Sequence record: PX880099.1
Source: a phage
Direction: 5' to 3' (one strand)
Length of the DNA stretch: 64,000 nucleotides
In this document: positions 9,058 to 63,428 of the stretch, piece by piece
Layout: each line of letters begins with the position of its first letter
Numbering within the stretch: the stretch's first letter is position 1
Notes under the pieces: model-generated
Database searches by the model: none
What the model was told of the DNA's origin: nothing
Seen by the model: the letters and a program-made list of their open reading frames with translations, nothing else
Position numbers and translations under genes: made by a program

Positions 9058-9069
9058 GAGGAGAACCAA

Positions 9070-11209: not shown

Positions 11210-12348
11210 TGAAATACACTATTTTTGGAGATGTAGCTGTTGTAAATAAGGAATATGGCGTTGAAGCTAATAAACTTCCTGCTGGAGTTTGGGTTGTCAA
11301 CTGCGATCCGCACGGTAACTACTCTTTAGTGCGTGGTGAAAGTTTCTCTCTTCCGAACACTCTTTATGGGGAAACTAAAGATCGCGCCGCACATGTTATT
11401 AAAACATTTGCTCGTCGTAGTAAAGAAGGTAAAAATACTGGGGTGTTACTGACAGGGACAAAAGGCAGTGGTAAGACGATGTTAGCTAAACTTATTAGCA
11501 TGTCTCTAATGTCCACAGAAGGTTTAGGTATTCCAACCATTTTGGTTACACAGCCTTACACAGATGCTGGCTTCTTAGAATTTATGAGTAAAATTACAGA
11601 TCGTGCTGTTGTTTTATTTGACGAATTTGATAAAGTGTACGCTAAGAAAGAAGATCAGGAAGCACTGTTGACCTTGTTGGATGGAACAGGAAGTGGGAAT
11701 AAACTTTACATCCTCACTAAAAATAGTGGTTATATCTCGGAATATTTTGTAAACCGTCCTAGTCGTATCTACTACAGTTTCAATTACGATAAACTGTCTA
11801 GTGAAACTATGTTAGATTACTTGGATAAGAACTTGGTAAATAAAAAGCACGTAGATAACTTCCAACGTTTATGGGATGTTAGCACAGAGTTGTCTTTCGA
11901 TGTTATTCAAGGCATTGTAGAAGAATTGAATTTCTATCCAAAAATGACTTTTAAAGAATGTCTTGAAATGATGGGTATTTCTTTAGGGAACGATGCTAAA
12001 TGGAATGTGGCTTCTATCGTAGCTAATGGCAAAACCTTGAAGGTGAATTGGATCAATAACTGGCACGACTTCACCCCTACTAAGTTTTTGTCGGGCGCTT
12101 GTTCCCTGAACATCTATCTACAAAGTTTGAAAGATGATGAAGTGGAAGCAATGGAAACCAACAGTTATGTTATCCTGGATGAAGATGGTGATCCACATAT
12201 TGATCTATGTGCAACGGCTGATGGTCTAACTTGTGATCTGATTGAAGGTGGTAAGATTCTGGTTATGAGCACTACACCAGGAAACACTTTGCGAGTGGTG
12301 CTGGAGCCTGTAACACAACGTTCCACTACACTTGGTAGCGTGTTCTAA
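11209..12348 (+). CDS. AAA-type ATPase
   Basis: 379 aa; Walker A GTKGSGKT, Walker B VVLFDEFDK. Confidence 0.6.
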   Translation: MKYTIFGDVAVVNKEYGVEANKLPAGVWVVNCDPHGNYSLVRGESFSLPNTLYGETKDRAAHVIKTFARRSKEGKNTGVLLTGTKGSGKTMLAKLISMSLMSTEGLGIPTILVTQPYTDAGFLEFMSKITDRAVVLFDEFDKVYAKKEDQEALLTLLDGTGSGNKLYILTKNSGYISEYFVNRPSRIYYSFNYDKLSSETMLDYLDKNLVNKKHVDNFQRLWDVSTELSFDVIQGIVEELNFYPKMTFKECLEMMGISLGNDAKWNVASIVANGKTLKVNWINNWHDFTPTKFLSGACSLNIYLQSLKDDEVEAMETNSYVILDEDGDPHIDLCATADGLTCDLIEGGKILVMSTTPGNTLRVVLEPVTQRSTTLGSVF

Positions 12349-12438: not shown

Positions 12439-13899
12439 GTGCCAAAAATAGTCACTTGGGAACAATATAAAACAGATATAAAACAAGCTTATCAAGGTAA
12501 GTCTTGGACTGTTGTAGATTATATTGAGCCGTGGAACGGCAATAAAACTAAACTTAGATGCATCTGTGCTCTGCATGGAGAATGGAAAACAACAAGCATA
12601 AATACCGCTAAACTAGGGAGGGGTTGTCCAGAATGCGGTAGGGAGATTATAAGTAAAGCAGTATCTATAAACAAATCAAAAACCTGGGAGCAATATAAAG
12701 AAGAAGTGCAAACCACTTACAATCAGGCAGGTAAGTTTTGGACTGTTACAGGATGGCACGGAGAATGGAAAGGATGGAATACTAAACTGGTTTGTTGTTG
12801 TGCTTTACATGGGGAGTGGAGGTCTACTTCTATATCTTCTGCGAAAAACGGGAGTGGATGCAGGAAGTGTATGGGAGAAGCAAACAGAGAAAGAACATCG
12901 ATTGCATGGGAGCAATATAAAGAAGAAGTAGAAGAAGCTTATAAAGAAAAACCCTGGATTGTTAGAGGCTATGTGGAACCGTGGAACGGTTCCCGCACTA
13001 AGTTGATTTGTGAGTGTAAGGTTCATGGTCAATGGTGCACTACCACTGTAAACAGTGCTAAACAAGGGACTGGATGCTACAGTTGTCAAAGAGAAATGAC
13101 GAAACAAAGGAATACAATGGAGGATAAACAACATGTTGAAGATTTTATAAAAGCTTGTCCTGATAATGTAGAGCGTAAATATTATCGTAGCGATAGAGTA
13201 GATAGATTAGGTCGTCAGGTTTACTGGATTGTAGAATGTCCTATATGTGCAGAGGATGATTATTGTAAAGAAGGCTTATGCGATAATAAATTTGAGATGA
13301 AGATGAGTCATTTGAAAAGGGGTGGCCTTCCTTGCCGTTGTTCTAAATATTATCATTACACTCCTGAACAATGGGCCTACCGTATGACCAAAGCTTGCCA
13401 GGAACGAGGGGATCAATTTATAGGATTCATTGATAAGGTAAGCAATAACAGCAAGTTTAAATATCTATGTAGGGAGCATGGAGAGCAAACGATCACACCT
13501 ACCGATTATCTCAATGGGAAAGGTTGTCCAGGCTGTAAGAACAGAAATATGCAAGAATTTTACATCAATATTATTCTTGATGAGTACGGAGAAGACACGG
13601 GAGCTTACAAGTTGGGGATTGCAAAGGACAGTGATATCAGGATCAAAGGGCAGAATGCAAACAACAATTACTCTATGCGCCGTATAGCATTGTTCGATCT
13701 GCCGTCCTACCAAGCTTGCAGGGCGTTAGAGAGTAAGCTAAAGTCTAAGACTGATCAGATTCTACCGTCTATTGGCTGTGTAGAACGCTTGCACATGAAA
13801 GATGGTCATAGTGAAACCTTCCTGCGCGAGGATTTGGCTATCGTCTTAAGTGCTATCAACCAAGCAGGTGGAATAATGAGAGAGGAGGAAACATGTTAG
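12439..13899 (+). CDS. cysteine-rich protein with three tandem about 70-aa modules, probable zinc-binding (GTG start)
   Basis: Module WEQYK...EPWNG..TKL.C.C..HGEW.T......G.GC..C repeated three times, then a Cys-rich C-terminal half. Confidence 0.55.
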   Translation: MPKIVTWEQYKTDIKQAYQGKSWTVVDYIEPWNGNKTKLRCICALHGEWKTTSINTAKLGRGCPECGREIISKAVSINKSKTWEQYKEEVQTTYNQAGKFWTVTGWHGEWKGWNTKLVCCCALHGEWRSTSISSAKNGSGCRKCMGEANRERTSIAWEQYKEEVEEAYKEKPWIVRGYVEPWNGSRTKLICECKVHGQWCTTTVNSAKQGTGCYSCQREMTKQRNTMEDKQHVEDFIKACPDNVERKYYRSDRVDRLGRQVYWIVECPICAEDDYCKEGLCDNKFEMKMSHLKRGGLPCRCSKYYHYTPEQWAYRMTKACQERGDQFIGFIDKVSNNSKFKYLCREHGEQTITPTDYLNGKGCPGCKNRNMQEFYINIILDEYGEDTGAYKLGIAKDSDIRIKGQNANNNYSMRRIALFDLPSYQACRALESKLKSKTDQILPSIGCVERLHMKDGHSETFLREDLAIVLSAINQAGGIMREEETC

Positions 13900-14271: not shown

Positions 14272-14451
14272 ATGGCACGTTTAGCAGATCATGAAATCTT
14301 TAAACCTATTCTGAACCACTATGATGAACTTAAAGCAGTGTTGGATTGTTATAGAGAGGATGAAGAACGTTTGGAAGTCAATCTTAAGATAGTTCTGATG
14401 AAAGCTTTTCAAGACGGGCAAGCTAAAGTTTTAGAAGGCATGAAAAAATGA
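14272..14451 (+). CDS. small hypothetical protein
   Basis: Start re-picked to ATG (MARLADHE) after AAAGGAGAA. Confidence 0.45.
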   Translation: MARLADHEIFKPILNHYDELKAVLDCYREDEERLEVNLKIVLMKAFQDGQAKVLEGMKK

Positions 14452-14990
14452 GAATAACTGATGAATATGTATTCTTCTTTTCACATAAAGATGTGTTTAG
14501 TAATTGGTATATTGCACCCTTTACAGAAACTGAACCAGGTTACAATGAGACTTTCTGTTGTGTTGAGCAATATATGATGTGGCGTAAGGCTTTGCTGTTC
14601 AAGGATCATGCGATTGCAGCAGCTATCCTTGATCACTCAACTATACGTGACAACGAGAGGAAACAAGCATACTACAAACGTATGGGTCGAGCGGTATCTG
14701 GTTTTAATAATGATATGTGGGAAGAGAACCGTGAGCGTATTGTTATGCGAGGCTTATGCTTGAAATATGTACAGAATCCAGATTTGTATGCAGACTTACA
14801 CCTTTACCAATACAAAACGTTTGTTGAAGCAAATCCTTACGATAAGGTTTACGGTATTGGAATGGGAATGTATGAACCAGGGGTGCTAAACCCTGCTACC
14901 TGGAAAGGGCAGAATCTTTTAGGCAAATATCATAATAAACTGATCGAAATACTTTTCCCAGACAAAATACCGCAAAGACGATATTTGTGA
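14448..14990 (+). CDS. NADAR-domain (YbiA/DUF1768-like) protein, candidate ADP-ribose-processing enzyme
   Basis: 180 aa; FFFSHKDVFSNWYIAPF, CVEQYMMWRKALLF, W..NRERIVMRGLCLKY.QNPDL, GIGMG...W.GQNLLGK match the NADAR pattern. Confidence 0.7.
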   Translation: MRITDEYVFFFSHKDVFSNWYIAPFTETEPGYNETFCCVEQYMMWRKALLFKDHAIAAAILDHSTIRDNERKQAYYKRMGRAVSGFNNDMWEENRERIVMRGLCLKYVQNPDLYADLHLYQYKTFVEANPYDKVYGIGMGMYEPGVLNPATWKGQNLLGKYHNKLIEILFPDKIPQRRYL

Positions 14991-37918: not shown

Positions 37919-38332
37919 ATGAAAAAGTTTATTTGCACCCGTTCCACTAACAGTGATATCCTTGTAGGTAAGGTTATCAAAGGAGAACTCTTCCATGCAA
38001 ACGGTAAGAAATATATTCTGCTGAAAGATTCTTTCAACGGGGAATATCCGCGCTGCACTTTCTTCAATTACAACACTCCGTTTGCTTTAGAAGGAGATGC
38101 TTGGGAATGGGCTGAACTCAATCCTTGTTGTGAGGAAGAAGAATCTATGTTCTTAGGTTTAAACGTTTACCGTGTAGATTACACCATGTGCGGAGCGGAA
38201 CATTCTGTTCGCGTAGAAGCCGAATCCAAACTACAAGCACCTTTCAAGGCAGGATTGACTTTGGGTCATTGTTTGGCAAACATTGAAGATGTTGTGATCC
38301 AAAGAGTTGTTTTAGAGAAAGAGGCTATTTGA
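37919..38332 (+). CDS. hypothetical protein
   Basis: 137 aa ORF, SD AGAGGAGAAAA. Confidence 0.55.
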   Translation: MKKFICTRSTNSDILVGKVIKGELFHANGKKYILLKDSFNGEYPRCTFFNYNTPFALEGDAWEWAELNPCCEEEESMFLGLNVYRVDYTMCGAEHSVRVEAESKLQAPFKAGLTLGHCLANIEDVVIQRVVLEKEAI

Positions 38333-38384
38333 GAGAAGACGGCACAATATTTAAATATAAAGATTAACCACAAAGGAGATAGAT

Positions 38385-38684
38385 ATGCAAGTTGAAGACC
38401 TGATCAAAATTTTGAATGAAGCCAAAGAGAAAGGTGCTATCAAGGACTGGAAACGTGAAACAAGTGAAGACCTATCTCACTGTTGCCGAGAATTTTACAT
38501 CGAAGGTATTGCTAACGATCATTATACTATTGAATGGTATATTAACTTAATGACTCTTAAACACGGTTCATTTGAGGTTTGGTTTGATGACATTGATGTA
38601 AATGGTTTTCATCCTGGCTATAAAATCGCTATGCAGTTATCTTATCGTAGAGAAGTTGTAGCACATTTGGGTTTACATAACTAA
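38385..38684 (+). CDS. hypothetical protein
   Basis: 99 aa ORF, SD AAAGGAGA. Confidence 0.55.
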   Translation: MQVEDLIKILNEAKEKGAIKDWKRETSEDLSHCCREFYIEGIANDHYTIEWYINLMTLKHGSFEVWFDDIDVNGFHPGYKIAMQLSYRREVVAHLGLHN

Positions 38685-38694
38685 GGAGAAAAGA

Positions 38695-39018
38695 ATGCAA
38701 GCAGTTGTTAACGAAGCTATTATGAACTTATCCTTCTTGTTAGCTGGTTTAGGAGGTGTTCTCATAGGTTTGGCTCTTATCTGGTGTATTCGTCGATTAA
38801 TCGGGTACCGACAAAAAGGTGTTTCATGTTTTGTATCTTACAATTTTACAACTGCTTACAGCAATGAGGTTGGATCTGGTAATGCTCAAGCATTTTTACC
38901 AACATATCCTCCTACGGTGGAAGATATTCGAAACTTGGAAGTAGAACTTATGGGACTAAGTGATAACTATACATCTCTCGTTATTCAAAATATTTTTCGA
39001 CTAAAACAGGAGGCGTGA
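38695..39018 (+). CDS. membrane-anchored hypothetical protein
   Basis: N-terminal hydrophobic LSFLLAGLGGVLIGLALIWCI. Confidence 0.5.
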   Translation: MQAVVNEAIMNLSFLLAGLGGVLIGLALIWCIRRLIGYRQKGVSCFVSYNFTTAYSNEVGSGNAQAFLPTYPPTVEDIRNLEVELMGLSDNYTSLVIQNIFRLKQEA

Positions 39019-39231
39019 ATGAAGGCACATTACCCTCATCCCTTTGATCCTAAAAACAAAGCCGTAATTCTTCGTCAGTGGCAACGGGTTTGTCGTACTA
39101 AATGTCCAATTAATAGCCAACACAATGTGGACAAGGACTATCTTGGGACATTTGTTGAATACACTTACATAGACAAAAACAAGCGTAAACAACATGTCGA
39201 GGAATACTGTTTAAGAGTAGAATGGCTGTAA
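39019..39231 (+). CDS. hypothetical protein
   Basis: 70 aa ORF, SD CAGGAGG. Confidence 0.5.
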   Translation: MKAHYPHPFDPKNKAVILRQWQRVCRTKCPINSQHNVDKDYLGTFVEYTYIDKNKRKQHVEEYCLRVEWL

Positions 39232-39243
39232 ATAATAAATACC

Positions 39244-39272
39244 TTGACAAGTGTTTATTCGTTTTGTAAAGT
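39244..39272 (+). promoter_or_regulatory. sigma70-type promoter upstream of the recombinase gene
   Basis: TTGACA-17-TAAAGT. Confidence 0.45.
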
Positions 39273-39301
39273 GAGAATACAGCAATGGTTTAGGAGTGGT
39301 T

Positions 39302-39973
39302 ATGAAAAAGTTTGTTGTTTACAGTCGTCTTTCTAAACAGAAAAAAGGTGAGGCACAATATGGTATGGAGAGCCAAGAGAATGATATCCGTTACTTCTTA
39401 GACTCTGTGCCTGATGCGGAAGTTATTGGTCAATTTTCTGAATACTATTCTGGTAAGGGCGATTGGAAGCAACGTAAGGAACTGGTTAAAGCGGTTGAAA
39501 TGTGTAAAGCTACCGGAGCAACTTTATTGGTAGCTAAAGTTGACCGCTTGGGTCGTAACAACGCCTCCGTAGCAACTCTTCTGGAGATGATCGATGTTAA
39601 GATAGCCATCATGCCAGACGCAGATAAAATGGTTATACAGCTTCTATCTGTTCTGGCTGAACAAGAAGTTAGAGGTATTGCTGATCGTATTAAAAAGGGT
39701 CTTGCTGTAGCAAAAAGTAAAGGTGTTTTATTAGGTAGTGCTAATCCTAAAACTGCCGCTGCACGTAGAAAAGGAAAAATGGAATACAACTCTGTTAAAG
39801 CAGACGCTTTTGCAGAGACATTCCGTGAACGCTTGGAGATCCTTAGAGATTTAAATACACCTTACAAAACTATTGCTGAAAAATTCAATAGTAAGAAAAT
39901 AGCAACAGCACGTGGTGGTAAATGGGATGCTAAAACTGTTTCTCGTTTGTGTGCCAGACTTAACATTAAATAG
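39302..39973 (+). CDS. serine recombinase (resolvase/invertase family)
   Basis: 223 aa; VVYSRLSKQ catalytic-serine region, LLVAKVDRLGRN, C-terminal HTH-like segment; ATG after AGGAG. Confidence 0.6.
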   Translation: MKKFVVYSRLSKQKKGEAQYGMESQENDIRYFLDSVPDAEVIGQFSEYYSGKGDWKQRKELVKAVEMCKATGATLLVAKVDRLGRNNASVATLLEMIDVKIAIMPDADKMVIQLLSVLAEQEVRGIADRIKKGLAVAKSKGVLLGSANPKTAAARRKGKMEYNSVKADAFAETFRERLEILRDLNTPYKTIAEKFNSKKIATARGGKWDAKTVSRLCARLNIK

Positions 39974-39981
39974 GAGAGGAT

Positions 39982-40392
39982 ATGAAACAAGAAAATGAAT
40001 CTGTAGATCACTTAATCATGCTGTCAACCCTTTTTGCCGGATGGGACGTATTTTTTGAAAATTTGTTCAATTCTGCTACAGATGGTTCCGATTTTATGCG
40101 GCAGTTTAAACGACGAACTGTTGAGGACTATGCTTTCTATTCAGGTCGGATTGAAAAAGGTTACGAAGATACAAATACAACACTCACCATTAAAGTTTTA
40201 GATGTGATGTTTAGTGTTATAGATGCTATCGACGAAAGTCTTCCGATCCTGGACAATTGTAATACGAAAGCCTATGTTTACAAAATAGCCCGTGCTTATG
40301 TGTCTGCAAACAGTTGTCTTCTTTCCACGCAGATTGCCGTGAACAATCTTGCCAACTTGTTCGACGAAGGAGAAACTTTTTATGACAATTGA
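39982..40392 (+). CDS. hypothetical protein
   Basis: 136 aa ORF, SD AGGAGAGGA. Confidence 0.55.
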   Translation: MKQENESVDHLIMLSTLFAGWDVFFENLFNSATDGSDFMRQFKRRTVEDYAFYSGRIEKGYEDTNTTLTIKVLDVMFSVIDAIDESLPILDNCNTKAYVYKIARAYVSANSCLLSTQIAVNNLANLFDEGETFYDN

Positions 40393-40747
40393 TTTGAAGT
40401 GTAAAAGGATTCTTTTAGATTTCTATAATAATTGGTTAGAACACCTCCGTCTCTTTCCAAGAGAAAGTGGTTACGCTGATGTTGGCTTATGCCGAGGTCT
40501 ACGTATGTATATAAGTGATGAATTTCGGGCCGAGCATTCTTTAGCATATTCTGTTTATGGTATGCAATTAGCCAGTTTTGAAAACGCTGGCTTAGATACA
40601 ACTTTCCCATTTAACACAGCAAAATCTTTTGAGCAAGAGTGTAAGGAAAAACGTTGCATGTTTAATGAAAAACGTGTACAGTGGGTTAAGGATCGAGTTA
40701 AACAACTGGAACAAGAGTTGGATTTCTTCTATGATGAGGCAGAATAA
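40382..40747 (+). CDS. paralog family A member 4
   Basis: ATG (MTIDLKC) after GAAGGAGAA; FYNNWL...GLCRGL...TFPF...RVQWVKDRV. Confidence 0.55.
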   Translation: MTIDLKCKRILLDFYNNWLEHLRLFPRESGYADVGLCRGLRMYISDEFRAEHSLAYSVYGMQLASFENAGLDTTFPFNTAKSFEQECKEKRCMFNEKRVQWVKDRVKQLEQELDFFYDEAE

Positions 40748-41019
40748 TGGATAGACAAACCTTAAAAACAATGGCAGATGCCACTAATTCCCCGTACTTT
40801 GAAAAAGTAAGTAAATTGGTAGCTCAAGCCGCAGAGGAAGGATATTATAACATAAACATCCACAACCCAAGTCTTATACTAGAAATGCCAAGTGATAAGA
40901 AGATACAAGAAAGTATCTGTGAAGGTATTGTTAGTTACTGGCGCGAGCGTGGGTGTGGTGCAAACATGGCTTTAGACAGTGCAAACATTGTAAGATATAT
41001 AAATATTTCTTGGGGGTGA
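40747..41019 (+). CDS. hypothetical protein
   Basis: 90 aa ORF. Confidence 0.5.
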   Translation: MDRQTLKTMADATNSPYFEKVSKLVAQAAEEGYYNINIHNPSLILEMPSDKKIQESICEGIVSYWRERGCGANMALDSANIVRYINISWG

Positions 41020-41023
41020 TTTT

Positions 41024-41635
41024 ATGATTCAATGCACTCATATCCAAATTACTTGGAGAGATGAACTTTACCATTTGGGACAATTTACTGTAGGGGAAAC
41101 ATACCCTATCATTAAACATAATCCTAACATCGCAAACTTTGACAGGATGGTTCTTGTTGAGGACGATCTAGGTCAAACTTATTCTTTAGATCTAAAATAT
41201 CCGTTTTCTTACGGCTACGATTGGATCGTTACTTTTGAAGACGTGGAGGAAAATAAAACAATGAACGAAAAAAATTCTTGGTATTATCGTTGTGAACTGC
41301 CGCCAGTAGGTGAAAAGGTTATCTTTGTTCCTGATTTGGAAAGATATTCTTGGGACAGTTCTTATTCTGTTCCTAAAGAAGGCACCGAAGTTGAAGTTAT
41401 TGCACATCGCACAACTTCGCATGGTAACGATGTAGCAGTTGTTTTCTGGGATGATGAAGGCGCTGCTTGTGCAGGTGGCTTTGTTGCAGGTAATTTTGAA
41501 CCCCTGCCAGATCCTTTGAAGGAGGCAATTTTAGGCGTAGCTTCTTTTGGACTCTCTTACACATCTGCACAGGAGATCGTAGAAGGTATTTTAAACGGTA
41601 CCGTTCCAAACGAAATTTTCAAACAGATTAAATAA
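41024..41635 (+). CDS. hypothetical protein
   Basis: 203 aa ORF. Confidence 0.55.
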   Translation: MIQCTHIQITWRDELYHLGQFTVGETYPIIKHNPNIANFDRMVLVEDDLGQTYSLDLKYPFSYGYDWIVTFEDVEENKTMNEKNSWYYRCELPPVGEKVIFVPDLERYSWDSSYSVPKEGTEVEVIAHRTTSHGNDVAVVFWDDEGAACAGGFVAGNFEPLPDPLKEAILGVASFGLSYTSAQEIVEGILNGTVPNEIFKQIK

Positions 41636-48140: not shown

Positions 48141-48794
48141 CTATACCAGACTTTCAAGGTATTTGTCAAGGGCTTCTTGATCACCTTGACAAACATAGCA
48201 ACGGAAGTCTTGAGCCGAAGGTTGTTTATTTTCATCCCAGTCCCAATAAACATTACCCTTATAACGTGAACCAGGAAACTCAAAAGAGGCTGTATGTGTA
48301 ATGTATCCTGGGCCACCAGTGAAATCACAGAATGAGAATTGGGGGTATGCCGCCTTTACTGCCTCAATAAACCAAGCTTTACGATCTAAAGCTTCATTGA
48401 TGCTATACGCATGTCTCTCCATTTCTTCCCACGTTTTCCAGACACTTCTTTCATCAGGAGAAAAGACAAGCCATTCTGGAAGGTAGAGAGTGTCATAGTA
48501 ATCATCATATTCGATCTCGGAGGCGCACGAGGCTGACTCCTCCAGTCTTGAGTAATCAAAAGCAGAATATACCCACCAACCATCTTCCAGTAAGGCTTTG
48601 ATAGGGACGAAGCCTTTATCAGCATATTGATCGAATTGTTTGACACGGTGGCTTGTGCAGTCTTCAAACTCACATTCTAAACGATATGACCCTTTTCGAC
48701 GAGCCTCAAGACCGTGTGTACTGAAAATAACAACACTTCCTTCACCATCATTACGATCTACTTGATAAGCAACTACTGGTTTTGAATTTGACAT
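48141..48794 (-). CDS. hypothetical protein
   Basis: 217 aa ORF, SD AAGGAGAAA. Confidence 0.55.
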   Translation of the reverse strand: MSNSKPVVAYQVDRNDGEGSVVIFSTHGLEARRKGSYRLECEFEDCTSHRVKQFDQYADKGFVPIKALLEDGWWVYSAFDYSRLEESASCASEIEYDDYYDTLYLPEWLVFSPDERSVWKTWEEMERHAYSINEALDRKAWFIEAVKAAYPQFSFCDFTGGPGYITHTASFEFPGSRYKGNVYWDWDENKQPSAQDFRCYVCQGDQEALDKYLESLV

Positions 48795-49477
48795 TATTTC
48801 TCCTTATCTAGAAGATTATTAGACAAAAACACTGCACGGGCAAAACCACGTGCTGTTAGTGATCTAAGTTGTTTTGTTTTTGCACTAGCTCCACCTAAGC
48901 TTTTCCAACCCCAGAAGCAGCCTATATGATCTACTGGTTTCTTCACTGGTTGAACAAAACCATTGCCGTGCCAAATACAAGTTTTCTTTGTATACCCATC
49001 ACGGGTAGGCATTTTAGGATGAAAGCTTCCTTCCTCTTCAAACAAATACCCACCATACTCATAAGGATCAAAGTAAAAATCGGGTTTACGCCATAAGGTT
49101 GAAAGTTTACCTACTGGGTTCTCAATCATCCAAGGAACATTATATTTGTTACCCAAAGCTTCCACTACACGAATATTAGCTAAAGCTTCATCTAATTCCT
49201 CTGTGCTACGTTCGTGTTTGCTACCACTACCTGCTAACATAGTGCAAGGTGGAAATCCAAAAATAATATCGGGTTTAGGTATCCCATAATCTTCAGGGTT
49301 GAATGTAGAATCTATCCAGGCATTCACATAGGTTATGTTTGGGTGCTCCATCCTAACCTCGTATTTACCGTGATCCCCTTCATCAGCGTTTACACAAAAA
49401 CACTTGTGACCTGCTTCGGCATAACGTAACACCATGATCCCAGATCCGTCAAACATAGACAAAACTGTTTTACTCAT
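48794..49477 (-). CDS. compact DNA (cytosine-5)-methyltransferase-like protein
   Basis: 227 aa from ATG (MSKTVL) after GGAGGGG; motif I LSMFDGSG, motif IV FGFPPC, ENPVG. Confidence 0.55.
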   Translation of the reverse strand: MSKTVLSMFDGSGIMVLRYAEAGHKCFCVNADEGDHGKYEVRMEHPNITYVNAWIDSTFNPEDYGIPKPDIIFGFPPCTMLAGSGSKHERSTEELDEALANIRVVEALGNKYNVPWMIENPVGKLSTLWRKPDFYFDPYEYGGYLFEEEGSFHPKMPTRDGYTKKTCIWHGNGFVQPVKKPVDHIGCFWGWKSLGGASAKTKQLRSLTARGFARAVFLSNNLLDKEK

Positions 49478-49865
49478 TACCCCTCCATTCAAGACAAGCC
49501 ATAACTTTACGCCAATCACTTTCTGTAAGAAAAATCTCGTTTGCTTTCTTCCACAAATCTAAATCGTGAAGGGTTGGAATACGATATGTTAGTTCACAGA
49601 ATCTATGCTCTTCTTCTGTAATATAACCAAAATGCAGAGCCACATCGTGAAACCAACACCAACCATGCATCTCTCGAACAACATGGTCATGTTGAGACAT
49701 TGTTTTATGCCGTAAACCTAACCAACAAGGAACGGATACTTTAGTAGTCTTTAATCTGTGATCAACAGTATTAGAGTATTCAATAATAGCTGTCAGTTTC
49801 AATCGTGCTTTTTCTAAATCCTCATGCGTCACTTTGAAATAACTTTCTGAAAGATATCCACACAT
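49470..49865 (-). CDS. hypothetical protein
   Basis: ATG (MCGYLSE) after GAAGGAGG; track start is TTG. Confidence 0.5.
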   Translation of the reverse strand: MCGYLSESYFKVTHEDLEKARLKLTAIIEYSNTVDHRLKTTKVSVPCWLGLRHKTMSQHDHVVREMHGWCWFHDVALHFGYITEEEHRFCELTYRIPTLHDLDLWKKANEIFLTESDWRKVMACLEWRGNE

Positions 49866-49866
49866 A

Positions 49867-50808
49867 TTAATAACCTCCTTCAAAAGGCTTTACTACATGT
49901 TGATTAGCTTTAAAACGTTCAACATAGTCGTTTTCACCCATGTTTTCATATAGTTTAGTAACAACATAAAAGTTTTCCCAAGCATATTCCCTAAACCAAC
50001 CACTAGTGATGGATGTGCAGACTTTAGATAAAGCCATTATAAAACTTTGCTTAGGGGTTGGACCTCCGATCTCTTCACCGAAAGGAATTTGTGAACGTTC
50101 CAAAGCCAAAACACACGCTTCTTCATAAACACCTAACAGGCGCACATGTTTTGGTTGAGCAAAAAACTTTTCTTTGCTGGTCATAACTTCACTTCCATCT
50201 TTCATATAAGATTTATATGCTGGAGCATCCATTACCGCGATTGCTTCATGGATAGAATCATGATCATAAACATACGGAACCTCATCACCTTTAAAGAAGT
50301 CTTTACTTTTTACGTTTAAGTTTGGATGAGAGTAAGTGTATGTTTCTTTCTCACGCAACTCATAAATACTCTTAAGATTTTCTGGGATCTTTGCGCCCAG
50401 TGATCGCATGAAATGAATATCTTTCATAGTTTTAAAGAAGTGAGGACTATCCTTTTTAAAACGATGACTCATTTTAAGAAGGTAGAGCACATCTAAAGGA
50501 GCAACAACGTGTCCAGCGTAAGTTCGACGAATATCATCAGAGTCTTCACAATAACTAATCAAAGCTTCTGTGCTATCTCCTTGAGAAGCAATATCGTATT
50601 CCAAATGTGCACCAGCTATCATTTTGACATGGCCTTTGTTCCCTTTACGTTCTACAAGTTCAACAAACTCATCTTGAGAGAACATTTTTGATAATTCTTC
50701 CCACTCTTGTTCTGTACACAGGTAATCTAGATCTACACAAGGGCGATACAAGTCTTTTCCCATGTCCATAGCATGAATTTGTAATGCACGGCTACCAATT
50801 AACACCAT
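49867..50808 (-). CDS. hypothetical protein, fold unassigned
   Basis: 313 aa ORF, SD GAGGAGAAA; N-terminal IGSRAL...DLD loosely reminiscent of a nucleotidyltransferase motif. Confidence 0.5.
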   Translation of the reverse strand: MVLIGSRALQIHAMDMGKDLYRPCVDLDYLCTEQEWEELSKMFSQDEFVELVERKGNKGHVKMIAGAHLEYDIASQGDSTEALISYCEDSDDIRRTYAGHVVAPLDVLYLLKMSHRFKKDSPHFFKTMKDIHFMRSLGAKIPENLKSIYELREKETYTYSHPNLNVKSKDFFKGDEVPYVYDHDSIHEAIAVMDAPAYKSYMKDGSEVMTSKEKFFAQPKHVRLLGVYEEACVLALERSQIPFGEEIGGPTPKQSFIMALSKVCTSITSGWFREYAWENFYVVTKLYENMGENDYVERFKANQHVVKPFEGGY

Positions 50809-50838
50809 AATATTTCTCCTCTATTGGTTGATAGGTTA

Positions 50839-50868
50839 AGTTTATCAAGCTTCCAGATTCCTGTCAAT
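50839..50868 (-). promoter_or_regulatory. sigma70-type promoter (TTGACA-17/18-TAAACT) on minus strand
   Basis: Reverse complement TTGACAGGAATCTGGAAGCTTGATAAACT just downstream of the terminator. Confidence 0.45.
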
Positions 50869-50890
50869 AAAAAACCCGCCGAAGCGGGTT
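50869..50890 (-). terminator. rho-independent terminator (ACCCGC-TTCG-GCGGGT plus T-run)
   Basis: Same sequence as the plus-strand terminator at 46128-46150. Confidence 0.65.
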
Positions 50891-50898
50891 ATTATTTA

Positions 50899-51171
50899 CT
50901 AACACATTGAGGAAGAAGAGATCCAAACACCTCTTGTGGTTAAACCATTTTCATCCAACTCTACACCATAATCTTCACAAATGAAATCAATATAGTGATC
51001 TGCGGCTGGCGTTCCTGTAGGGTAATAAGTTTCTCCGTTACCGTAGTCACCTATCCAAGCTTGTTCCTGGAACTGTTCACAAAGTTCTTCAATTTCCTTA
51101 CGAAACTTTCTTTGTGCTTGTTCCATCTCTTTAACTTTCTTTTTTATCAGCAGTTCGCCTTCAGATTCCAC
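50899..51171 (-). CDS. paralog family C member 1, small acidic protein (GTG start)
   Basis: C-terminus GVWISSSSMC shared with two neighbours. Confidence 0.5.
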   Translation of the reverse strand: MESEGELLIKKKVKEMEQAQRKFRKEIEELCEQFQEQAWIGDYGNGETYYPTGTPAADHYIDFICEDYGVELDENGLTTRGVWISSSSMC

Positions 51172-51180
51172 AATCTCTCC

Positions 51181-51399
51181 TTAACAGCTACTACTGTGCC
51201 AAACGCCTTGAGAATTAACGACGAAACCATCATCACCTTCACCATAACAAGAAGAGGATTGCCAATCTTCAAAACAGATTGCGTCATTTTCTAAACTAAG
51301 ACCAAAACCAGCATCTTCAGCTTCTTTTGTAAGTTCGTCCACTAAAGCCATAATAGCTTGGGCTTTTTCAGTTAATTCTTCAACATTACGATCACTCAT
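51181..51399 (-). CDS. paralog family C member 2, small acidic protein
   Basis: ATG (MSDRNVEE) after GGAGGAG; C-terminus GVWHSSSC. Confidence 0.5.
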   Translation of the reverse strand: MSDRNVEELTEKAQAIMALVDELTKEAEDAGFGLSLENDAICFEDWQSSSCYGEGDDGFVVNSQGVWHSSSC

Positions 51400-51674
51400 T
51401 AGTATTTCTCCTCCGGTTGGAAAACTGAACGACAAGCCCACATACTAGCTTCTTTTAAATGTTTAATAGCACAACGGATTTGATCAATACGTTCGTATGC
51501 AAGATCTAATTCTTTTTCTGTGCCGTCAAAAGACCCATGATATGCTTCACAATACTCTTCCTCTAAAGCTTTGAAGATTAAACCTAAACGCTCTTCTGCA
51601 TCTTTAATAGCGTTAACCTTGCCAATCTTATCGTCAGTATGCGCCTTATAACCTTTGATATCTTCGATTCCCAC
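51399..51674 (-). CDS. hypothetical protein (GTG start)
   Basis: GTG after TAGGAGG; track start is TTG. Confidence 0.4.
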   Translation of the reverse strand: MGIEDIKGYKAHTDDKIGKVNAIKDAEERLGLIFKALEEEYCEAYHGSFDGTEKELDLAYERIDQIRCAIKHLKEASMWACRSVFQPEEKY

Positions 51675-51685
51675 TTTACCTCCTA

Positions 51686-51883
51686 TTAACAACTTAAAGA
51701 AGATGGATGCCAATTTGTTCCAGTATTCTCATTTTCATCTTCTGGATCATAATAACCACCCATCCCATATTCAGGGGAGAAACGGAAACCTTTACCAGTC
51801 TCATCTGCTAACTGCTCTGCTTCCGCTAAAGCCTCATAAGCTGCTTTTACGGCTTCTTCTACTGTTTTAAACTTGGTCGTCAT
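51686..51883 (-). CDS. paralog family C member 3, small acidic protein
   Basis: C-terminus NWHPSSLSC; SD GGAGAGGAG. Confidence 0.5.
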   Translation of the reverse strand: MTTKFKTVEEAVKAAYEALAEAEQLADETGKGFRFSPEYGMGGYYDPEDENENTGTNWHPSSLSC

Positions 51884-52157
51884 AAAATTTCTCCTCTCCT
51901 AAAGACATGTTGACATGAAATGCACGATATGTAAATTCGTTGTCCGTTGTGTTTGAATAAAACTCAAATTGAACAACACCGTCTTGAGAAGACAGATACA
52001 TGCCAATTTGAACTGTTCCTTCTGGTACCAGGTAAGCATACTCTGGACGTAGTGTTACATTGTAAAAATAAAGTTCCCCAACACCCATTTCATCCCAAGC
52101 TTCCCAAGCGGTAACGAAGTTACTTTCAAAACTTGTTACTGATCCGAACTCTGCCAT
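51867..52157 (-). CDS. hypothetical protein
   Basis: 96 aa ORF, SD GAGGAGG. Confidence 0.5.
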   Translation of the reverse strand: MAEFGSVTSFESNFVTAWEAWDEMGVGELYFYNVTLRPEYAYLVPEGTVQIGMYLSSQDGVVQFEFYSNTTDNEFTYRAFHVNMSLGEEKFYDDQV

Positions 52158-55893: not shown

Positions 55894-56403
55894 TTAAACA
55901 AAATAAAATGGTTGAGAGAGGCCCAAACGATTCTTTGGGTCGTATACATACCAAGCGTATGCTGTCTTATCTGTTCCACCTGCAACAAACGAAGGCCGTT
56001 CTGAAAGGACTATAAGGTTCGTTGGTGGATTCTTTTGATGGAACTCTCGTCGTTTCTTTGACTCCAAGAAGCCCAACCGAAGAAGATAAATACAAACATC
56101 CGCCTCTTTTAAGCTCTTTTCCAAGAACTCCATTGCTAACTTGAATGGAGGATTTGTGATTATAATGTCGGGACGATTTTCCCATTCATGACTAAAATAA
56201 TCTTTACCTTCTTCAAGTTCACAATATTCTGAACCTTCAGGAAAATGGCGATAAATCGCTTCAGCTTCACCTCTACAAGGTTCTGCAAAAACCCAACCTT
56301 CTTCCTTTAGATTTTTGAAATCTATAACACTAAACAAACTATTGATTGCTTTTTGCGGTGTCGGATAATAATCGCTCGTTGGGCGATCATAATCTAATGC
56401 CAT
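55894..56403 (-). CDS. small SAM-dependent methyltransferase-like protein with NPPF motif (candidate N6-adenine or N4-cytosine DNA MTase)
   Basis: 169 aa; IIITNPPF catalytic-type motif; SD AGAGGAGA. Confidence 0.45.
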   Translation of the reverse strand: MALDYDRPTSDYYPTPQKAINSLFSVIDFKNLKEEGWVFAEPCRGEAEAIYRHFPEGSEYCELEEGKDYFSHEWENRPDIIITNPPFKLAMEFLEKSLKEADVCIYLLRLGFLESKKRREFHQKNPPTNLIVLSERPSFVAGGTDKTAYAWYVYDPKNRLGLSQPFYFV

Positions 56404-56866: not shown

Positions 56867-57559
56867 TTAAATAGCGGTTCCTTCGAAATCCGCCACATTT
56901 ACGAGATTAATATTTTCAGATTTAGAAGTCAAGTTGTTTTCTGCAACAGATTTTTCTTCAGTATCCGCCTCGTTACCTGCCACGTTACGAGGTTCTTCTT
57001 CACCGTAGGGATTACCGAATTTCAAAAGATTGATTAATTCTTCTTTGGAGAAGTTTTCTAAATCATCGTCTGTTAATTCAATAATCTCGTCTTGTTCTTC
57101 AATAAATGTTTCACCACCAGAAAAAGCATCTCGCTTTTTAGCTACTTCCATAGCCTGTTCTGGTGTTGCCCCTGCATCAAGAGCAGCTAAAGCAAAGTCT
57201 GACCCACTCCCCACTGCATAATATTCTTCATCAATCGGATATGCACGTGTTGGGTTGTTACCTTCGTGCAGGAAAATACGTCCGTCTGGATGAACAACAA
57301 GTGCAATAAACTCTTCATCTTCTTTGTCTGGATCAGAATGAATCATCAAACCAGGGACAGCATCGCGTGCTGCTTCGCACTGTAGATTTTGTTCAAACCA
57401 TTGAAAGAAAGAAAGCACGGAGGTCAGACGACCAGCACCACCTACAAGGTAATCTCCAATTTTTCGGACCTTTTTGAAATTAATAGAATCTACACGTCCA
57501 CCAAAAGTTACCTTACCATCACTCAAAATCTTATTTTTGGTTGCAATAATTGTCGTCAC
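56867..57559 (-). CDS. HslV/proteasome-beta-like Ntn hydrolase with acidic C-terminal extension
   Basis: N-terminus M-TTIIATKNKI (Thr right after initiator), KVRKIG, GGAGR, VGSGSDFALAA pattern; GTG start after GAGGAGG. Confidence 0.55.
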   Translation of the reverse strand: MTTIIATKNKILSDGKVTFGGRVDSINFKKVRKIGDYLVGGAGRLTSVLSFFQWFEQNLQCEAARDAVPGLMIHSDPDKEDEEFIALVVHPDGRIFLHEGNNPTRAYPIDEEYYAVGSGSDFALAALDAGATPEQAMEVAKKRDAFSGGETFIEEQDEIIELTDDDLENFSKEELINLLKFGNPYGEEEPRNVAGNEADTEEKSVAENNLTSKSENINLVNVADFEGTAI

Positions 57560-59553: not shown

Positions 59554-59814
59554 TTACTCCGCAATTTGAGCCATGAGATCACGCAGTTCGGTAAAACCGC
59601 CTACGTATGTTACCTCCCCGTTCACTTCAGACAGAATTTGTGGAAATGTGCGTGGAGGAACTCCGGTAAGATCAACAACTGTTTTAGTCATTGATTCTAA
59701 ATCATAGTCTTGGTCAAGACTTAAATATTCAAACTGTTTATTGCGCATAGTCAATAGTTGTTTTGACATTTCACAAAATTGACAGTTAGGTTTACCAAAA
59801 ATTACAAATTCCAT
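59554..59814 (-). CDS. nrdC: glutaredoxin-like protein (NrdC-type)
   Basis: 86 aa; CQFC active-site CxxC, GGF..LR C-terminal region. Confidence 0.7.
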   Translation of the reverse strand: MEFVIFGKPNCQFCEMSKQLLTMRNKQFEYLSLDQDYDLESMTKTVVDLTGVPPRTFPQILSEVNGEVTYVGGFTELRDLMAQIAE

Positions 59815-60656
59815 TACCTCTCCTTATTAAGTAATACTGCTAAAGACTGTTCAATACCTTTATTTAAATCTGATTTTGTAAGATAGTGACTGGTTACTAG
59901 TTGTGACTTCACCGGACGTGCTGCTGGAGCATTATAGGTTGAAGCTGATACCGCCGATATCTTAACAGGTTCTGGCATCTGTGTCAAGATCTTTTCCGCA
60001 AACTCCGCCCAAGAAATAAGATGGCTTCCTGCAAAATGGTAAGTCTTAACAGACCTTGACCAACCTGTTTTTAATACTTCAAAAATAGCTTCTGCTAAAT
60101 CTGGAGCATATGTTGGACAAGAGAACTGATCAGCAACAATAATAAAATCACGTTGTCCATCATTATAGCGAGACAACATGGTTTTTAGAAAGTTATTTCC
60201 AAATTCGCTATATACCGAGGCTGTTCGAATAATATATGCATTTGGGTTAACTCCTCGCACCATTTTTTCACCAAGTTCTTTCGTATACCCATAATTGTTT
60301 ATTGGGTTAGGTGTAGTATCTTCAAAAATAGGATGAGAATAATTAAAAATATAGTCTGTGGAAATATGCACAAAATCAATTTTAAGTTTGCTGCACACTG
60401 CCGCAATATTTGCAGGGCCATAAGCATTAACAGCCAAAGCAGTAGCAAAATCTTGTTCGGCTTTATCTACAGCCGTATAAGCGGCGCAATTAATAACACC
60501 ATCTACATAATCTTCAATAATAGCGTTTCGCACAGCTTCAAAATTTGTAATATCTACACGTTCTTTAGGATAAATTAAAGATACATTTGCAGGGGCAACT
60601 TTACGTAAAGCTTGTCCCAGTTGTCCATTACCACCCAATACCAAATATGTTAGCAT
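59814..60656 (-). CDS. rmlD: dTDP-4-dehydrorhamnose reductase
   Basis: LVLGGNGQLG Rossmann N-terminus, overall RfbD/RmlD pattern; last gene of the four-gene operon. Confidence 0.85.
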   Translation of the reverse strand: MLTYLVLGGNGQLGQALRKVAPANVSLIYPKERVDITNFEAVRNAIIEDYVDGVINCAAYTAVDKAEQDFATALAVNAYGPANIAAVCSKLKIDFVHISTDYIFNYSHPIFEDTTPNPINNYGYTKELGEKMVRGVNPNAYIIRTASVYSEFGNNFLKTMLSRYNDGQRDFIIVADQFSCPTYAPDLAEAIFEVLKTGWSRSVKTYHFAGSHLISWAEFAEKILTQMPEPVKISAVSASTYNAPAARPVKSQLVTSHYLTKSDLNKGIEQSLAVLLNKER

Positions 60657-61216
60657 ACACCCTCGCTACGTAACTGTTGAAAAGATTTAGCCATTGCATC
60701 TTTTGTTGATAGGATAGGTTTAAAACCTTCATCAAAAATCATATCGAAGCCCCAATCGATCCCTATATCAGGATCATCCCAACGTAAACTTTGTTCACTA
60801 GAAGGGTCGTATGGAGTTGTGCATTTGTATTCAAAGATAGCATCCATACTCAAAACTATAAAACCATGTGCCAAACCAGGTGGAAGCCAAAACTGCGTAT
60901 GGTGTCGTGCACGAAGAACAACACCGTCCCAAGCACCGTAAGTAGGACTATCTTTACGTAAGTCTACAGCGAAATCCAATACTTCACCACTTACACAACG
61001 AACAAGCTTACCTTGCGGATTATTTGTTTGAAAGTGCATTCCTCGCAAAACACCGAAGTTTGATTTAGACATGTTATCTTGAACGAAAGTTTGTCTACCA
61101 ATAATATCTTCGTATTTTTGTTCATTATATGTTTCTAAAAAGAAACCACGGTCATCTTTATAAACGTCTGGTTTGATAATTACCGCACCTTCAATTTTTG
61201 TTTTTTCTACTTTCAT
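60650..61216 (-). CDS. rmlC: dTDP-4-dehydrorhamnose 3,5-epimerase
   Basis: ATG ([10 protein letters not shown]) after GGAGGGAAA; [24 protein letters not shown] cupin motifs. Confidence 0.85.
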
Positions 61217-62091
61217 TTTCCCTCCGCTAATTTGAGTAGGTATTGCCCGTACTCTGTTTTCTTCAGTGAGTTTCCATGATAGACCAAAGTCTCTAAAGAA
61301 ATCCACCCTTTTTTGAAAGCAATTTCTTCCAGGCACGCAATCTTCAATCCTTGACAGTTCTCAATAGTCTGCACGAATTGACCAGCTTCCATCAGACTGG
61401 CGTGTGTTCCTGTGTCAAGCCAAGTAAATCCTCGTCCGAGAACTTCTACTTGTAACTTCCTGTCTTCGAGGTAGCTGCGATTGATATCGGTGATCTCCAG
61501 TTCTCCACGCGCGGAAGGGGTTACTTCTAATGCACGTTGAATAACAGAGTTATCATAGAAATACAAACCTGTGACAGCATAATCTGATTTAGGATTTTCA
61601 GGTTTCTCTTCAATAGAAATAACTTGACGATTACTCCCAAATTCAACCACACCGAATCGTTCAGGATCTTTCACCAAACACCCGAAGATACAAGCTCCGC
61701 CCCAAACATCTACCATCTCACTAGCGTTAATCAGTAGTTTACCAAAGCTTTGTCCGAAGAACAGGTTGTCACCTAAAATAAGAGCAACAGAGTCTTCTCC
61801 GATAAAATCTTTACCGATGATGAAAGCGTCCGCAAGACCTCGTGGCTCGGATTGGATTGCGTAAGTGAGTTTTATCCCAAACATAGACCCATCTCCAAGA
61901 AGATGCTCAAAGTCTTCCTGATCGCCTGGTGTGGTGATGATTAAGATATCCTTAATGTCAGCCAACATCAATACCGATAAAGGGTAGTAGATCATGGGTT
62001 TGTCATACACAGGGAGCAATTGCTTGCTCACACTGCGTGTTACCGGATGAAGGCGGGTTCCACTTCCTCCCGCCAAAATAATACCTTTCAT
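61213..62091 (-). CDS. rmlA: glucose-1-phosphate thymidylyltransferase
   Basis: [18 protein letters not shown]...LGDN, full-length RmlA pattern. Confidence 0.9.
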
Positions 62092-62099
62092 AACCCTCC

Positions 62100-63092
62100 T
62101 TAAATCTTCTCACTCCACCATTGAGGGTTGTTTAAGTACCATTCAATCGTTGAGTAGAGATCTTGTTCAAATGTAGAGTTTGCACTCCAACCCAGTTCAG
62201 ACTCTATTTTAGAAGGATTGATTTCATAACGCAAGTCATGTCCTTTACGATCTTCAACAAAAGTTATCAAGTTGGAAGAAGGGTAGGTTCCTGCTTCTGG
62301 ATGTACAGCATCCATGTAGTCACAAACCATATAGATGATCTCCATATTGGTTTTGGGATTACGTGTTCCAACATTATACGTTTGACCTGGTTCTCCACCT
62401 GTTGCCACTTGAAGAATAGCTCGCGCATGATCCTCAACAAAAAGCCAGTCTCGCACCTGATCGCCTTTACCATACACCGGAATCTCTTTATTCGTCAAGA
62501 TACTTGTGATGATTTTTGGGATCAGCTTTTCTGGATGTTGATAAGGTCCAAAGTTATTGGAGCAGTTGGTTATCACAACAGGTAAACCGTAGGTACGGTA
62601 CCAAGCTTTCACAAGATGGTCAGATGCTGCCTTAGACGCACTGTACGGGCTTGAAGGGGCATAAGCTGTCTCTTCGGTAAAGGGAACGCCAGAGTCTGCC
62701 ATATCGCCGTACACTTCGTCTGTGGAGACGTGTACGAACATCTTCAGTTTATTTTTTGGGAGGAGCCTTGCAGCTTCCAATAAATTGTATGTGCCAATAA
62801 TATTGGAGTCGATGAAAACTCGTGGATTCTTGATAGAATTATCCACATGACTCTCTGCCGCTAAGTGAATGATGAAATCGGGATTGCACTCTACTACTAA
62901 ACTTTTGACCTGGGTTTCGTTTGCCAAATCTGTTATGCTTAGTTTAACGTGAGTGATATCGCCTACATTCTCAATATCTGCTGCATAGCCCATCTTATCA
63001 ACGACAAAAACTTCGTTATTGGGATCTTGACAAAGAGAGCGCACCACGGCACTCCCAATAAAACCAAGACCACCTGTTACCAGATAGCGCAT
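62100..63092 (-). CDS. rmlB: dTDP-glucose 4,6-dehydratase
   Basis: [22 protein letters not shown] catalytic triad region. Confidence 0.9.
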
Positions 63093-63101: not shown

Positions 63102-63428
63102 TTACCAGACATGTTGAGAAATAATAGTTTCCGTTTTAATGTTATATTTTTCAAGTAGCTTTGCATAGGCTTCTTTTGCATTCTCATTCAATTGCTCAAG
63201 ATCTACAGCTATGCTTCCTTCTCCGCCTTCTAAATCAAGGCCATATATGCAATAAGACTCATCCGCATCGTAGAAAGGAGAGATGCGGCTTAAGTCAAGA
63301 CCTTCTTGTAAGAACCAGTTAAAATCTCCGTCAAATTCTTCTTCAATTCTAGGATCTTCTCCTACAGCCTCTTCCCACTTATTAAAAGGTGCACCCTGTA
63401 ACATACGCCATTCGATATCAATACCCAT
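63102..63428 (-). CDS. hypothetical acidic protein
   Basis: 108 aa ORF. Confidence 0.5.
   Translation of the reverse strand: MGIDIEWRMLQGAPFNKWEEAVGEDPRIEEEFDGDFNWFLQEGLDLSRISPFYDADESYCIYGLDLEGGEGSIAVDLEQLNENAKEAYAKLLEKYNIKTETIISQHVW

Follow-up and report, generated by a model that had tools for sequence, protein, structure and literature searches.

A conserved dTDP-L-rhamnose gene cassette of Phapecoctavirus coliphages and its putative phage-encoded glycosyltransferase partners

Bacterial operons for the synthesis of dTDP-L-rhamnose (dTDP, deoxythymidine diphosphate), such as rfbBDAC of Escherichia coli K-12 and rmlABCD of Salmonella enterica, encode four enzyme families in one tightly packed unit. 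The same four families are encoded by the cassette considered here, which occupies positions 59814–63092 of a 64,000-nucleotide (nt) stretch of phage DNA (sequence record PX880099.1; the whole stretch is hereafter called the window). Its gene order is rmlB-rmlA-rmlC-rmlD versus B-D-A-C in K-12 and, unlike the bacterial operons, it lies within the ribonucleotide-reductase gene block of a virulent phage and has no flanking O-antigen genes. The closest described counterparts are the cassettes of phages phAPEC8, phi92 and other Stephanstirmvirinae, from which that of the window shows no material difference, being a further member of the same set. Synechococcus phages S-B05 and S-B43, Sphingomonas phage PAU and Bacillus phage G also carry homologs of rmlA, rmlB or rmlC, at 36–56% identity and in partial or differently arranged sets, which suggests that these genes were acquired independently.

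The presence of the rml cassette in such coliphages is already known: it has been annotated since 2012 (phAPEC8, phi92), is found in more than 100 GenBank phage records and was discussed in 2020 and 2021. The position of the genes in the DNA-metabolism region was called peculiar, and rhamnosylation of hydroxymethylated nucleotides was proposed (Olsen, 2020; PMC7552041), whereas the phi92-like phages were later described as exceptionally sensitive to restriction-modification despite their ‘putative dTDP glycosylation machinery’ (Maffei, 2021; PMC8594841), and both points were restated more recently (Vitt, 2024; PMC10844046). In the report on phage ZCKP1, modification of the surface polysaccharides of the infected cell was suggested (PMC6141743). 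No experimental work on the function of these genes was found in the literature.

In the window, the four genes are intact and follow one another closely on the leftward strand, the cassette being located between nrdB and a glutaredoxin gene (Table 1). All four deduced proteins exceeded the cut-offs of the curated equivalog models of NCBIfam: RmlB with 430 bits against TIGR01181 (cut-off 365), RmlA with 461 bits against TIGR01207 (cut-off 361), RmlC with 225 bits against TIGR01221 (cut-off 156) and, by a narrow margin, RmlD with 238 bits against TIGR01214 (cut-off 224); the Pfam assignments were consistent with these. Among the solved structures, the best relative of RmlB was the S. enterica RmlB (1g1a, 374 bits), with conservation of the Thr-Asp-Glu triad (STDE) and of the YxxxK motif (YSASK), while RmlA aligned end to end with 4ho0 (416 bits) and kept the N-terminal GGSGTRL. 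For RmlC, the best match was the S. enterica RmlC (1dzr, 193 bits), with which the RGMHFQ, GKLVRC, FEYK and STKD motifs align, the equivalents of what we take to be the catalytic residues His63, Lys73, Tyr133 and Asp170 all being present. RmlD was closest to 3sc6 (154 bits), presumably the Bacillus anthracis RmlD, with alignment of GGNGQLG, STDY and YGYTK (that is, Thr...Tyr-x-x-x-Lys), and gave only 106 bits with 1kbz, which we take to be the S. enterica enzyme. These scores, together with the retained catalytic residues, bear out the initial annotation of the segment, which had assigned to it all four pathway genes in the order B-A-C-D.

Each of the four genes is preceded by its own Shine-Dalgarno site, AAGGAG being located 5 nt ahead of the rmlB ATG. 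The start of rmlC was placed at the ATG at 61216, which has such a site, and not at the GTG at 61336, where the mechanically delimited open reading frame (ORF) begins. The genes had been described as overlapping, and this holds for rmlA/rmlC (4 nt, ATGA, with GGAGGG preceding the rmlC start) and for rmlC/rmlD (7 nt), but not for rmlB and rmlA, which are separated by an 8-nt spacer containing GGAGG. The rmlD gene overlaps the glutaredoxin gene by 1 nt (TAATG), and the two are translationally coupled. Further downstream, the lysozyme and phoH genes named in the initial annotation were recognized with Pfam, whereas the neighbor that had been called nrdC is more properly described as a gene for a glutaredoxin-fold protein (PF00462). 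A scan for promoters and terminators around the operon gave counts near the shuffled expectation and supports no operon boundaries. No tRNA genes were found in the 64-kb window.

The window belongs to the genus Phapecoctavirus (subfamily Stephanstirmvirinae; the phAPEC8 group of virulent E. coli phages). The cassette segment is 99.9% identical to that of Dompiswa phage TSP7_1 and 98–99.5% identical to those of dozens of further complete Phapecoctavirus genomes, ESCO13, phAPEC8 and tuntematon among them, in which the rml genes are annotated. Origin of the segment from host or prophage-flanking DNA was rejected, as it is collinear, at 98–99.9% identity, in dozens of genomes of virulent phages and, additionally, phi92, which belongs to another genus, carries the same cassette at the same position; the phage origin initially assumed for the segment thus stands.

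In phi92, the four genes (gp64–67) have the same order and the same neighbors as in the window: nrdA, an HNH gene, nrdB, five small genes, rmlB-A-C-D, glutaredoxin, a small gene, lysozyme, phoH, one gene and hslV. The amino acid identity between the window and phi92 is 63% for RmlB, 72% for RmlA, 63% for RmlC and 54% for RmlD, and 56–78% for the products of the flanking genes. Synonymous sites of the rml genes are saturated (proportion of synonymous differences, pS, 0.63–0.83), while the proportion of nonsynonymous differences (pN) is 0.21–0.30. Saturated pS with low pN and the common gene order show that the cassette is old, has been inherited vertically and is under purifying selection. Salmonella phage PVP-SE1 (Vequintavirinae) has a single gene, and no rml genes, between nrdB and the homologous glutaredoxin gene, so the cassette was inserted into the ribonucleotide-reductase gene block, and glutaredoxin marks its downstream edge. 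Such an insertion is enough to account for its location among the genes of DNA metabolism.

The cassette was not recently captured from E. coli. The identity to the K-12 proteins is 50% for RfbB, 62% for RfbA, 50% for RfbC and 31% for RfbD, and in a search of 5.8 billion proteins RmlD fell into a phage clade (at least 50% identity, mostly on contigs of approximately 113–157 kb) separated by a gap from the cellular homologs, none of which exceeded 45%; both observations argue against a recent host source, as does the much higher score of RmlD with 3sc6 than with 1kbz. RmlC homologs with at least 60% identity were found in 130 phage records, as compared with 133 records for the major capsid protein at an identity of at least 80%, and no members of Vequintavirinae (capsid protein identity of about 41%) were among the RmlC matches. 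By these counts, rmlC is effectively a core gene of Stephanstirmvirinae. Several GenBank records that carry the names of non-enterobacterial hosts (MG065650, MG065645, MG065639 and MG065689, ‘Campylobacter phage’; OP562383, ‘Acinetobacter phage’; OR584014, ‘Pseudomonas phage’) are coliphage-type Stephanstirmvirinae, some of them matching the rml genes of the window at up to 99–100% identity; mislabeling of the host or contamination with other phages may be responsible.

Not all members of the genus retain the complete cassette. RmlA homologs with at least 60% identity were found in 121 records, versus 130 for RmlC, and about nine Phapecoctavirus genomes (nepoznato, ZCKP1 and approximately seven others) have lost rmlB-rmlA, with rmlC-rmlD intact. 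In nepoznato and ZCKP1, the gene of 108 amino acids (aa) located upstream of rmlB in the window forms the upstream edge of the deletion and is followed, 9 nt on, by rmlC, all else being in place; the junction falls within the ribosome-binding-site sequence GGTAAGGAG (positions 3991–4001 in both the nepoznato, L007, and ZCKP1, L008, sequences, corresponding to window 61217–63092). According to textbook accounts, all Enterobacterales make dTDP-4-keto-6-deoxyglucose for the enterobacterial common antigen (ECA) by means of RffH and RffG, whereas rmlC and rmlD are confined to strains whose O antigens contain rhamnose and are missing from many E. coli; using sensitive blastn, K-12 rfbC was detectable in at least 2348 of 5426 complete E. 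coli genomes. Supply of the intermediate by the host, together with the lack of rmlC-rmlD in many hosts, would explain why only rmlB-rmlA were lost. We infer that the indispensable contribution of the phage is the last two steps of the pathway and that it is L-rhamnose itself that the phage needs, whatever the serotype of its host, which implies a use specified by the phage. A deletion of this type also accounts for the remark that phage ESCO37 has no rmlA and rmlB (PMC10269720). A second rmlA/rmlB pair in phage ESCO5, suspected from the wording of the same paper, was rejected, as tblastn showed a single copy; the wording reflects the lack of rmlB-rmlA in ESCO37-type phages. The phages with deleted rmlB-rmlA are ready-made natural mutants for probing the purpose of the pathway.

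As to the enzymes that could use dTDP-L-rhamnose, the initial annotation had recognized no glycosyltransferase (GT) in the window and was correct in leaving both the transferase and the acceptor open: Pfam detected none in 27 window proteins (ten ORFs of at least 150 aa between 29682 and 47606 were outside the scan), and none is annotated over the same region in phage vB_Ec-G1, which is 99% identical. The search of the remaining genome, which it had advised, was performed with close relatives and revealed four tandem glycosyltransferase genes approximately 15 kb to the left of window base 1, at 87984–91128 of vB_Ec-G1 (37984–41128 of the extracted region L003, minus strand); ORFs of identical length are present at 48767–51911 of TSP7_1. 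In vB_Ec-G1, the glycosyltransferase cassette is bordered by an endolysin gene on one side and by the genes for a primase/helicase, a DNA methyltransferase-like protein and DNA polymerase on the other.

Two of the four proteins, GT3 and the product of gene GT4, have a predicted GT-A fold with DxD-type motifs, while the other two are paralogs with a GT-B fold similar to that of the GT4 family, and no transmembrane segments were found in any of them. GT3 gave a confident predicted GT-A model with an invariant FDDD motif. The predicted GT-B model was GT4-family-like, its closest structural neighbors including the Campylobacter Pgl-pathway enzymes 8dqd and WlaC (6eji), PimA, WbnH and WaaG. A search of the glycosyltransferase sequences against solved structures gave no meaningful match, and NCBIfam gave none. 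Enzymes of the GT4 family are retaining, whereas most L-rhamnosyltransferases are GT-A or GT-B enzymes that act by inversion. Judged by this difference, GT3 or the gene GT4 product would be likelier users of rhamnose than the GT-B pair. Among enterobacterial phages, the distribution of GT3 is essentially equal to that of RmlC, a coincidence confounded by shared descent.

Scanning of IMG/VR with a GT3 alignment retrieved 27 loci, in 22 of which GT3 was paired with a GT-B gene (of the GTB2 type in 21); only Stephanstirmvirinae-like loci have a second GT-B, which arose by duplication. In all eight smaller unrelated phages examined, the GT3 and GT-B genes were located in a late, packaging or structural gene cluster (Table 1). 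The pair is a mobile module. In a distant myovirus contig (L024), a gene of the short-chain dehydrogenase/reductase (SDR) family at 8622–9686, resembling dTDP-glucose 4,6-dehydratase (195 bits against TIGR01181, below the cut-off), lies between homologs of gene GT4 and GT3, which is a physical link of deoxy-sugar synthesis to the glycosyltransferase module, although in a single case.

Table 1. Genes of the rml cassette and its borders (window coordinates), the product of glycosyltransferase gene GT4, and gene order around the GT3/GT-B module in eight smaller phages (GTB, GT-B-fold gene)
Feature	Coordinates	Strand	Length	Assignment or gene order
rmlB	62100..63092 (63092 -> 62100)	minus	330 aa	dTDP-glucose 4,6-dehydratase
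rmlA	61213..62091	minus	292 aa	glucose-1-phosphate thymidylyltransferase
rmlC	60650..61216	minus	188 aa	dTDP-4-dehydrorhamnose 3,5-epimerase
rmlD	59814..60656	minus	280 aa	dTDP-4-dehydrorhamnose reductase
glutaredoxin-like gene	59554..59814	minus		PF00462, E=1.8e-9; context, outside the sugar pathway
108-aa gene	63102..63428	minus	108 aa	no assigned function; directly upstream of rmlB
gene GT4			187 aa	phrog_14179; D-T-D motif
L006 (Serratia sp. M24T3 prophage)				lysis genes, GT4-GT3-GTB, HNH, terminase
L010				terminase, GTB, one gene, GT3, portal
L025				Ig-like domain protein, GT3-GTB, terminase, portal
L026				GT3-GTB, terminase, head-morphogenesis genes
L032				tail-repeat protein, GTB-GT3, terminase, portal
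L036				Q antiterminator, GT3-GTB, lysozyme, terminase, portal
L038				GT3-GTB, HNH, terminase, portal
L028				GT3-GTB-GT4, tail tube, tape measure

A described system that resembles the glycosyltransferase cassette is that of the cluster F mycobacteriophages, exemplified by Che8, in which the glycosyltransferases are likewise phage-encoded, soluble and arranged in tandem. GT3 matched 327 Mycobacterium phage records, mostly of cluster F, with about 26% identity over residues 26–155 (E-values of 1e-8 to 1e-5). Although genuine, this homology is distant and may go no further than a GT-A core common to both groups. The systems also differ in that mycobacteriophages use the sugar nucleotides of the host, while the coliphage carries its own dTDP-rhamnose pathway. 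The cluster F glycosyltransferases are reported to be associated with glycosylated capsids (PMC11256854, citing Freeman, 2023; PMC12619734); the homology to the coliphage enzymes is weak (some 130 residues).

Considering these data, we favor the following route. According to the known chemistry of the four families, the Rml enzymes would convert glucose-1-phosphate and deoxythymidine triphosphate (dTTP) into dTDP-L-rhamnose in the infected cell, to which the purifying selection on the genes lends indirect support, and the cassette would free the rhamnose supply from the host serotype. We infer that the product is used by the phage-encoded soluble glycosyltransferases, which seems probable; the acceptors named here and below are candidates. 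The weakest step is the acceptor: one or more virion proteins, the likeliest candidate, might receive the sugar, resulting in a rhamnose-containing O-glycan on the particle, by comparison with the cluster F mycobacteriophages. As the module is located among late genes in the lambdoid-type phages, late-expressed virion proteins would be its simplest acceptor. We put forward the transfer of rhamnose to virion proteins tentatively, as a possibility that may well prove wrong. The broader proposition, that a coliphage builds a virion glycan by combining its own dTDP-L-rhamnose pathway with a mobile, phage-specific module of GT-A and GT4-like GT-B enzymes that also circulates in phages of Gram-negative bacteria, lambdoid and otherwise, is doubtful as a whole.

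Several facts weigh against a rhamnose glycan on the particle. The searchable literature contains no report of a glycan on a virion protein of Stephanstirmvirinae, and no Ser/Thr-rich C-terminal tail was found on the capsid, decoration, tube and sheath proteins of vB_Ec-G1, a check that is in itself uninformative and in which the target was a tail presumably of the type found in Che8. The glycosyltransferase cassette of the coliphage is situated beside the genes for primase/helicase and DNA polymerase, outside the structural genes. The rml genes and the glycosyltransferases are connected by their co-occurrence in one lineage, which is confounded by shared descent, and by the single case of L024. 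In the smaller phages bearing the module, no rml genes were found in the fetched flanks, so the module is not inherently rhamnose-dependent. Finally, the structural matches are generic for the GT-A and GT4 folds and identify neither the donor nor the acceptor.

If virion proteins are nevertheless glycosylated in this way, virion glycosylation would be a widespread trait of phages and not a peculiarity of mycobacteriophages, and the presence of such a glycan would influence the recognition of therapeutic phages by antibodies as well as their clearance and stability; a change of the host surface or a mark on the DNA would, for its part, represent a new mechanism of exclusion or of anti-defense. 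In any of these cases, a conserved and selected four-enzyme cassette, along with four glycosyltransferases, is present in a group of phages widely used for therapy and biocontrol.

Alternatively, dTDP-L-rhamnose might be placed by phage or host enzymes on lipid-linked intermediates of lipopolysaccharide (LPS), O-antigen, ECA or capsule, and the altered surface of the infected cell would then block superinfection or keep the progeny off cell debris. This is what was proposed for ZCKP1 (PMC6141743), and it agrees with the enzymes of lipid-linked acceptors among the structural neighbors of the GT-B model (all five of those named above), with the requirement of relatives of these phages for LPS core and glycan receptors during infection, and with the ability of E. 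coli K-12 to rhamnosylate its LPS inner core (Klein, 2011, cited in PMC12548472). However, the four glycosyltransferases are soluble and are accompanied by no flippase, polymerase or Gtr-type membrane protein. Serotype conversion by GtrABC involves a membrane flippase GtrA, a bactoprenol glucosyltransferase GtrB and a serotype-specific integral membrane transferase, all expressed from a prophage, whereas neither Gtr-like genes nor an integrase are annotated in complete vB_Ec-G1, and the phages of its group are described as lytic. In the temperate relatives, the module belongs to a late operon, and the expression limited to the lytic cycle would be wrongly timed for lysogenic conversion. Moreover, by our own reasoning, a lytic cycle leaves little time for the export and display of a new glycan. 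With these facts in mind, we consider modification of the host envelope unlikely, though not negligibly so.

Less probable still is another cytoplasmic acceptor or a metabolic role, that is, rhamnosylation of a nonstructural protein of host or phage, synthesis of a small-molecule rhamnoside, or diversion of dTDP-4-keto-6-deoxyglucose from ECA. In some bacteria, elongation factor P (EF-P) is rhamnosylated by EarP. The solubility of the glycosyltransferases would suit such a role, the data do not fix the acceptor, and the retention of rmlC-rmlD alone in the deletion variants fits diversion of the ECA intermediate. Nevertheless, no homolog of EarP or of another specific known system was detected. 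For diversion, rmlA and rmlB would be superfluous, yet most members of the group keep them under purifying selection, and the conserved cassette of four glycosyltransferases would be left unaccounted for. We therefore regard roles of this kind as quite improbable.

Transfer of rhamnose to a hydroxylated base of the phage DNA for nuclease evasion, similar to the glucosyl-hydroxymethylcytosine of T4, has been hypothesized from the position of the rml genes in the nucleotide-metabolism region (PMC7552041; PMC10844046). The T-even glucosylation and the RB69/DLP3 arabinosylation systems are comparable in combining a phage-borne supply of sugar nucleotide with glycosyltransferases among the genes of nucleotide metabolism and replication (PMC6024577; PMC13326640), and the glycosyltransferase cassette of the coliphage does adjoin the primase/helicase and DNA polymerase genes. 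In addition, GT3 has short and weak local matches, limited to residues 32–70, one to PF20691, a family of TET-associated glycosyltransferases (E=1.2e-3, short of the gathering score), and one to phrog_842, the beta-glucosyl-HMC (hydroxymethylcytosine) alpha-glucosyltransferase (E=7.5e-6). On the other hand, the position of the rml genes is accounted for by their insertion into the nrd operon, and the predicted GT-B fold is closer to generic GT4-family enzymes than to the T4 glucosyltransferases AGT and BGT, which were only the 18th and the 30th among the fold matches. The T-even and RB69/DLP3 systems depend on a ThyA-family enzyme making 5-hydroxymethylcytosine (5hmC) or 5-hydroxycytosine (5hoC), and their DNA is restriction-resistant; in the coliphage, no such enzyme was found. 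More precisely, no hydroxymethylase or hydroxylase of the ThyA type and no TET/JBP oxygenase is annotated in complete vB_Ec-G1 or was detected by Pfam in the scanned window proteins, many small ORFs being unassigned. The only thymidylate synthase is of the ThyX type and is common to PVP-SE1, which has no rml genes in its nrdB-glutaredoxin block. This glycosyltransferase module is also carried by small lambdoid-type phages, which are not known to make hydroxylated bases.

Further evidence on this point comes from restriction sites. In vB_Ec-G1, 13 of the 56 palindromic hexamers with adequate expectation are absent, versus 10 of 3922 non-palindromes; in the window, the corresponding values are 11 of 53 and 8 of 3842, with CTGCAG, GGATCC, CGATCG, GGCGCC and GCATGC among the absent palindromes. 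There is not a single PstI site in vB_Ec-G1 (28.7 expected) and not a single BamHI site (23 expected), while GTAC, GGCC and CCGG occur in this 150-kb genome at 0.33–0.41 of expectation. Avoidance this strong is to be expected only of DNA on which type II enzymes can act, and it argues against blanket glycosylation. It is in line with the ‘exceptionally susceptible’ behavior of the phi92-like sister genus, which has the same genes, toward restriction-modification (PMC8594841). Taken together, these results make rhamnosylation of the DNA, above all blanket glycosylation, very unlikely, DNA being the least likely of the three candidate targets of the initial annotation, while a sparse, sequence-specific modification is possible. 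Four genes of vB_Ec-G1 are annotated as DNA methyltransferases and would suit protection of the DNA by methylation, not glycosylation. In the window, a 169-aa protein encoded at 55894–56403 (minus strand) is a DNA methyltransferase according to the annotation of relatives and has no Pfam match.

Some other features of the window deserve mention. The segment 148–1170 has no nucleotide match to vB_Ec-G1, in which it falls inside a gene annotated as ribonucleotide reductase, while its flanks are 93–95% identical; replacement or strong divergence may account for this. A gene at 56867–57559 (minus strand) corresponds, by position and length only, to the HslV-family peptidase in the annotation of relatives. 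On the plus strand, an AAA/STAND-like ATPase is encoded at 11209–12348, followed at 12439–13899 by a 486-aa protein with three CapR-homology repeats, whose place in vB_Ec-G1 is taken by a 330-aa gene with an endonuclease annotation, and at 14448–14990 by a NADAR-domain protein (E=1.7e-34). The NADAR family is linked to the reversal of ADP-ribosylation, and these three neighbors may form an anti-defense cluster.

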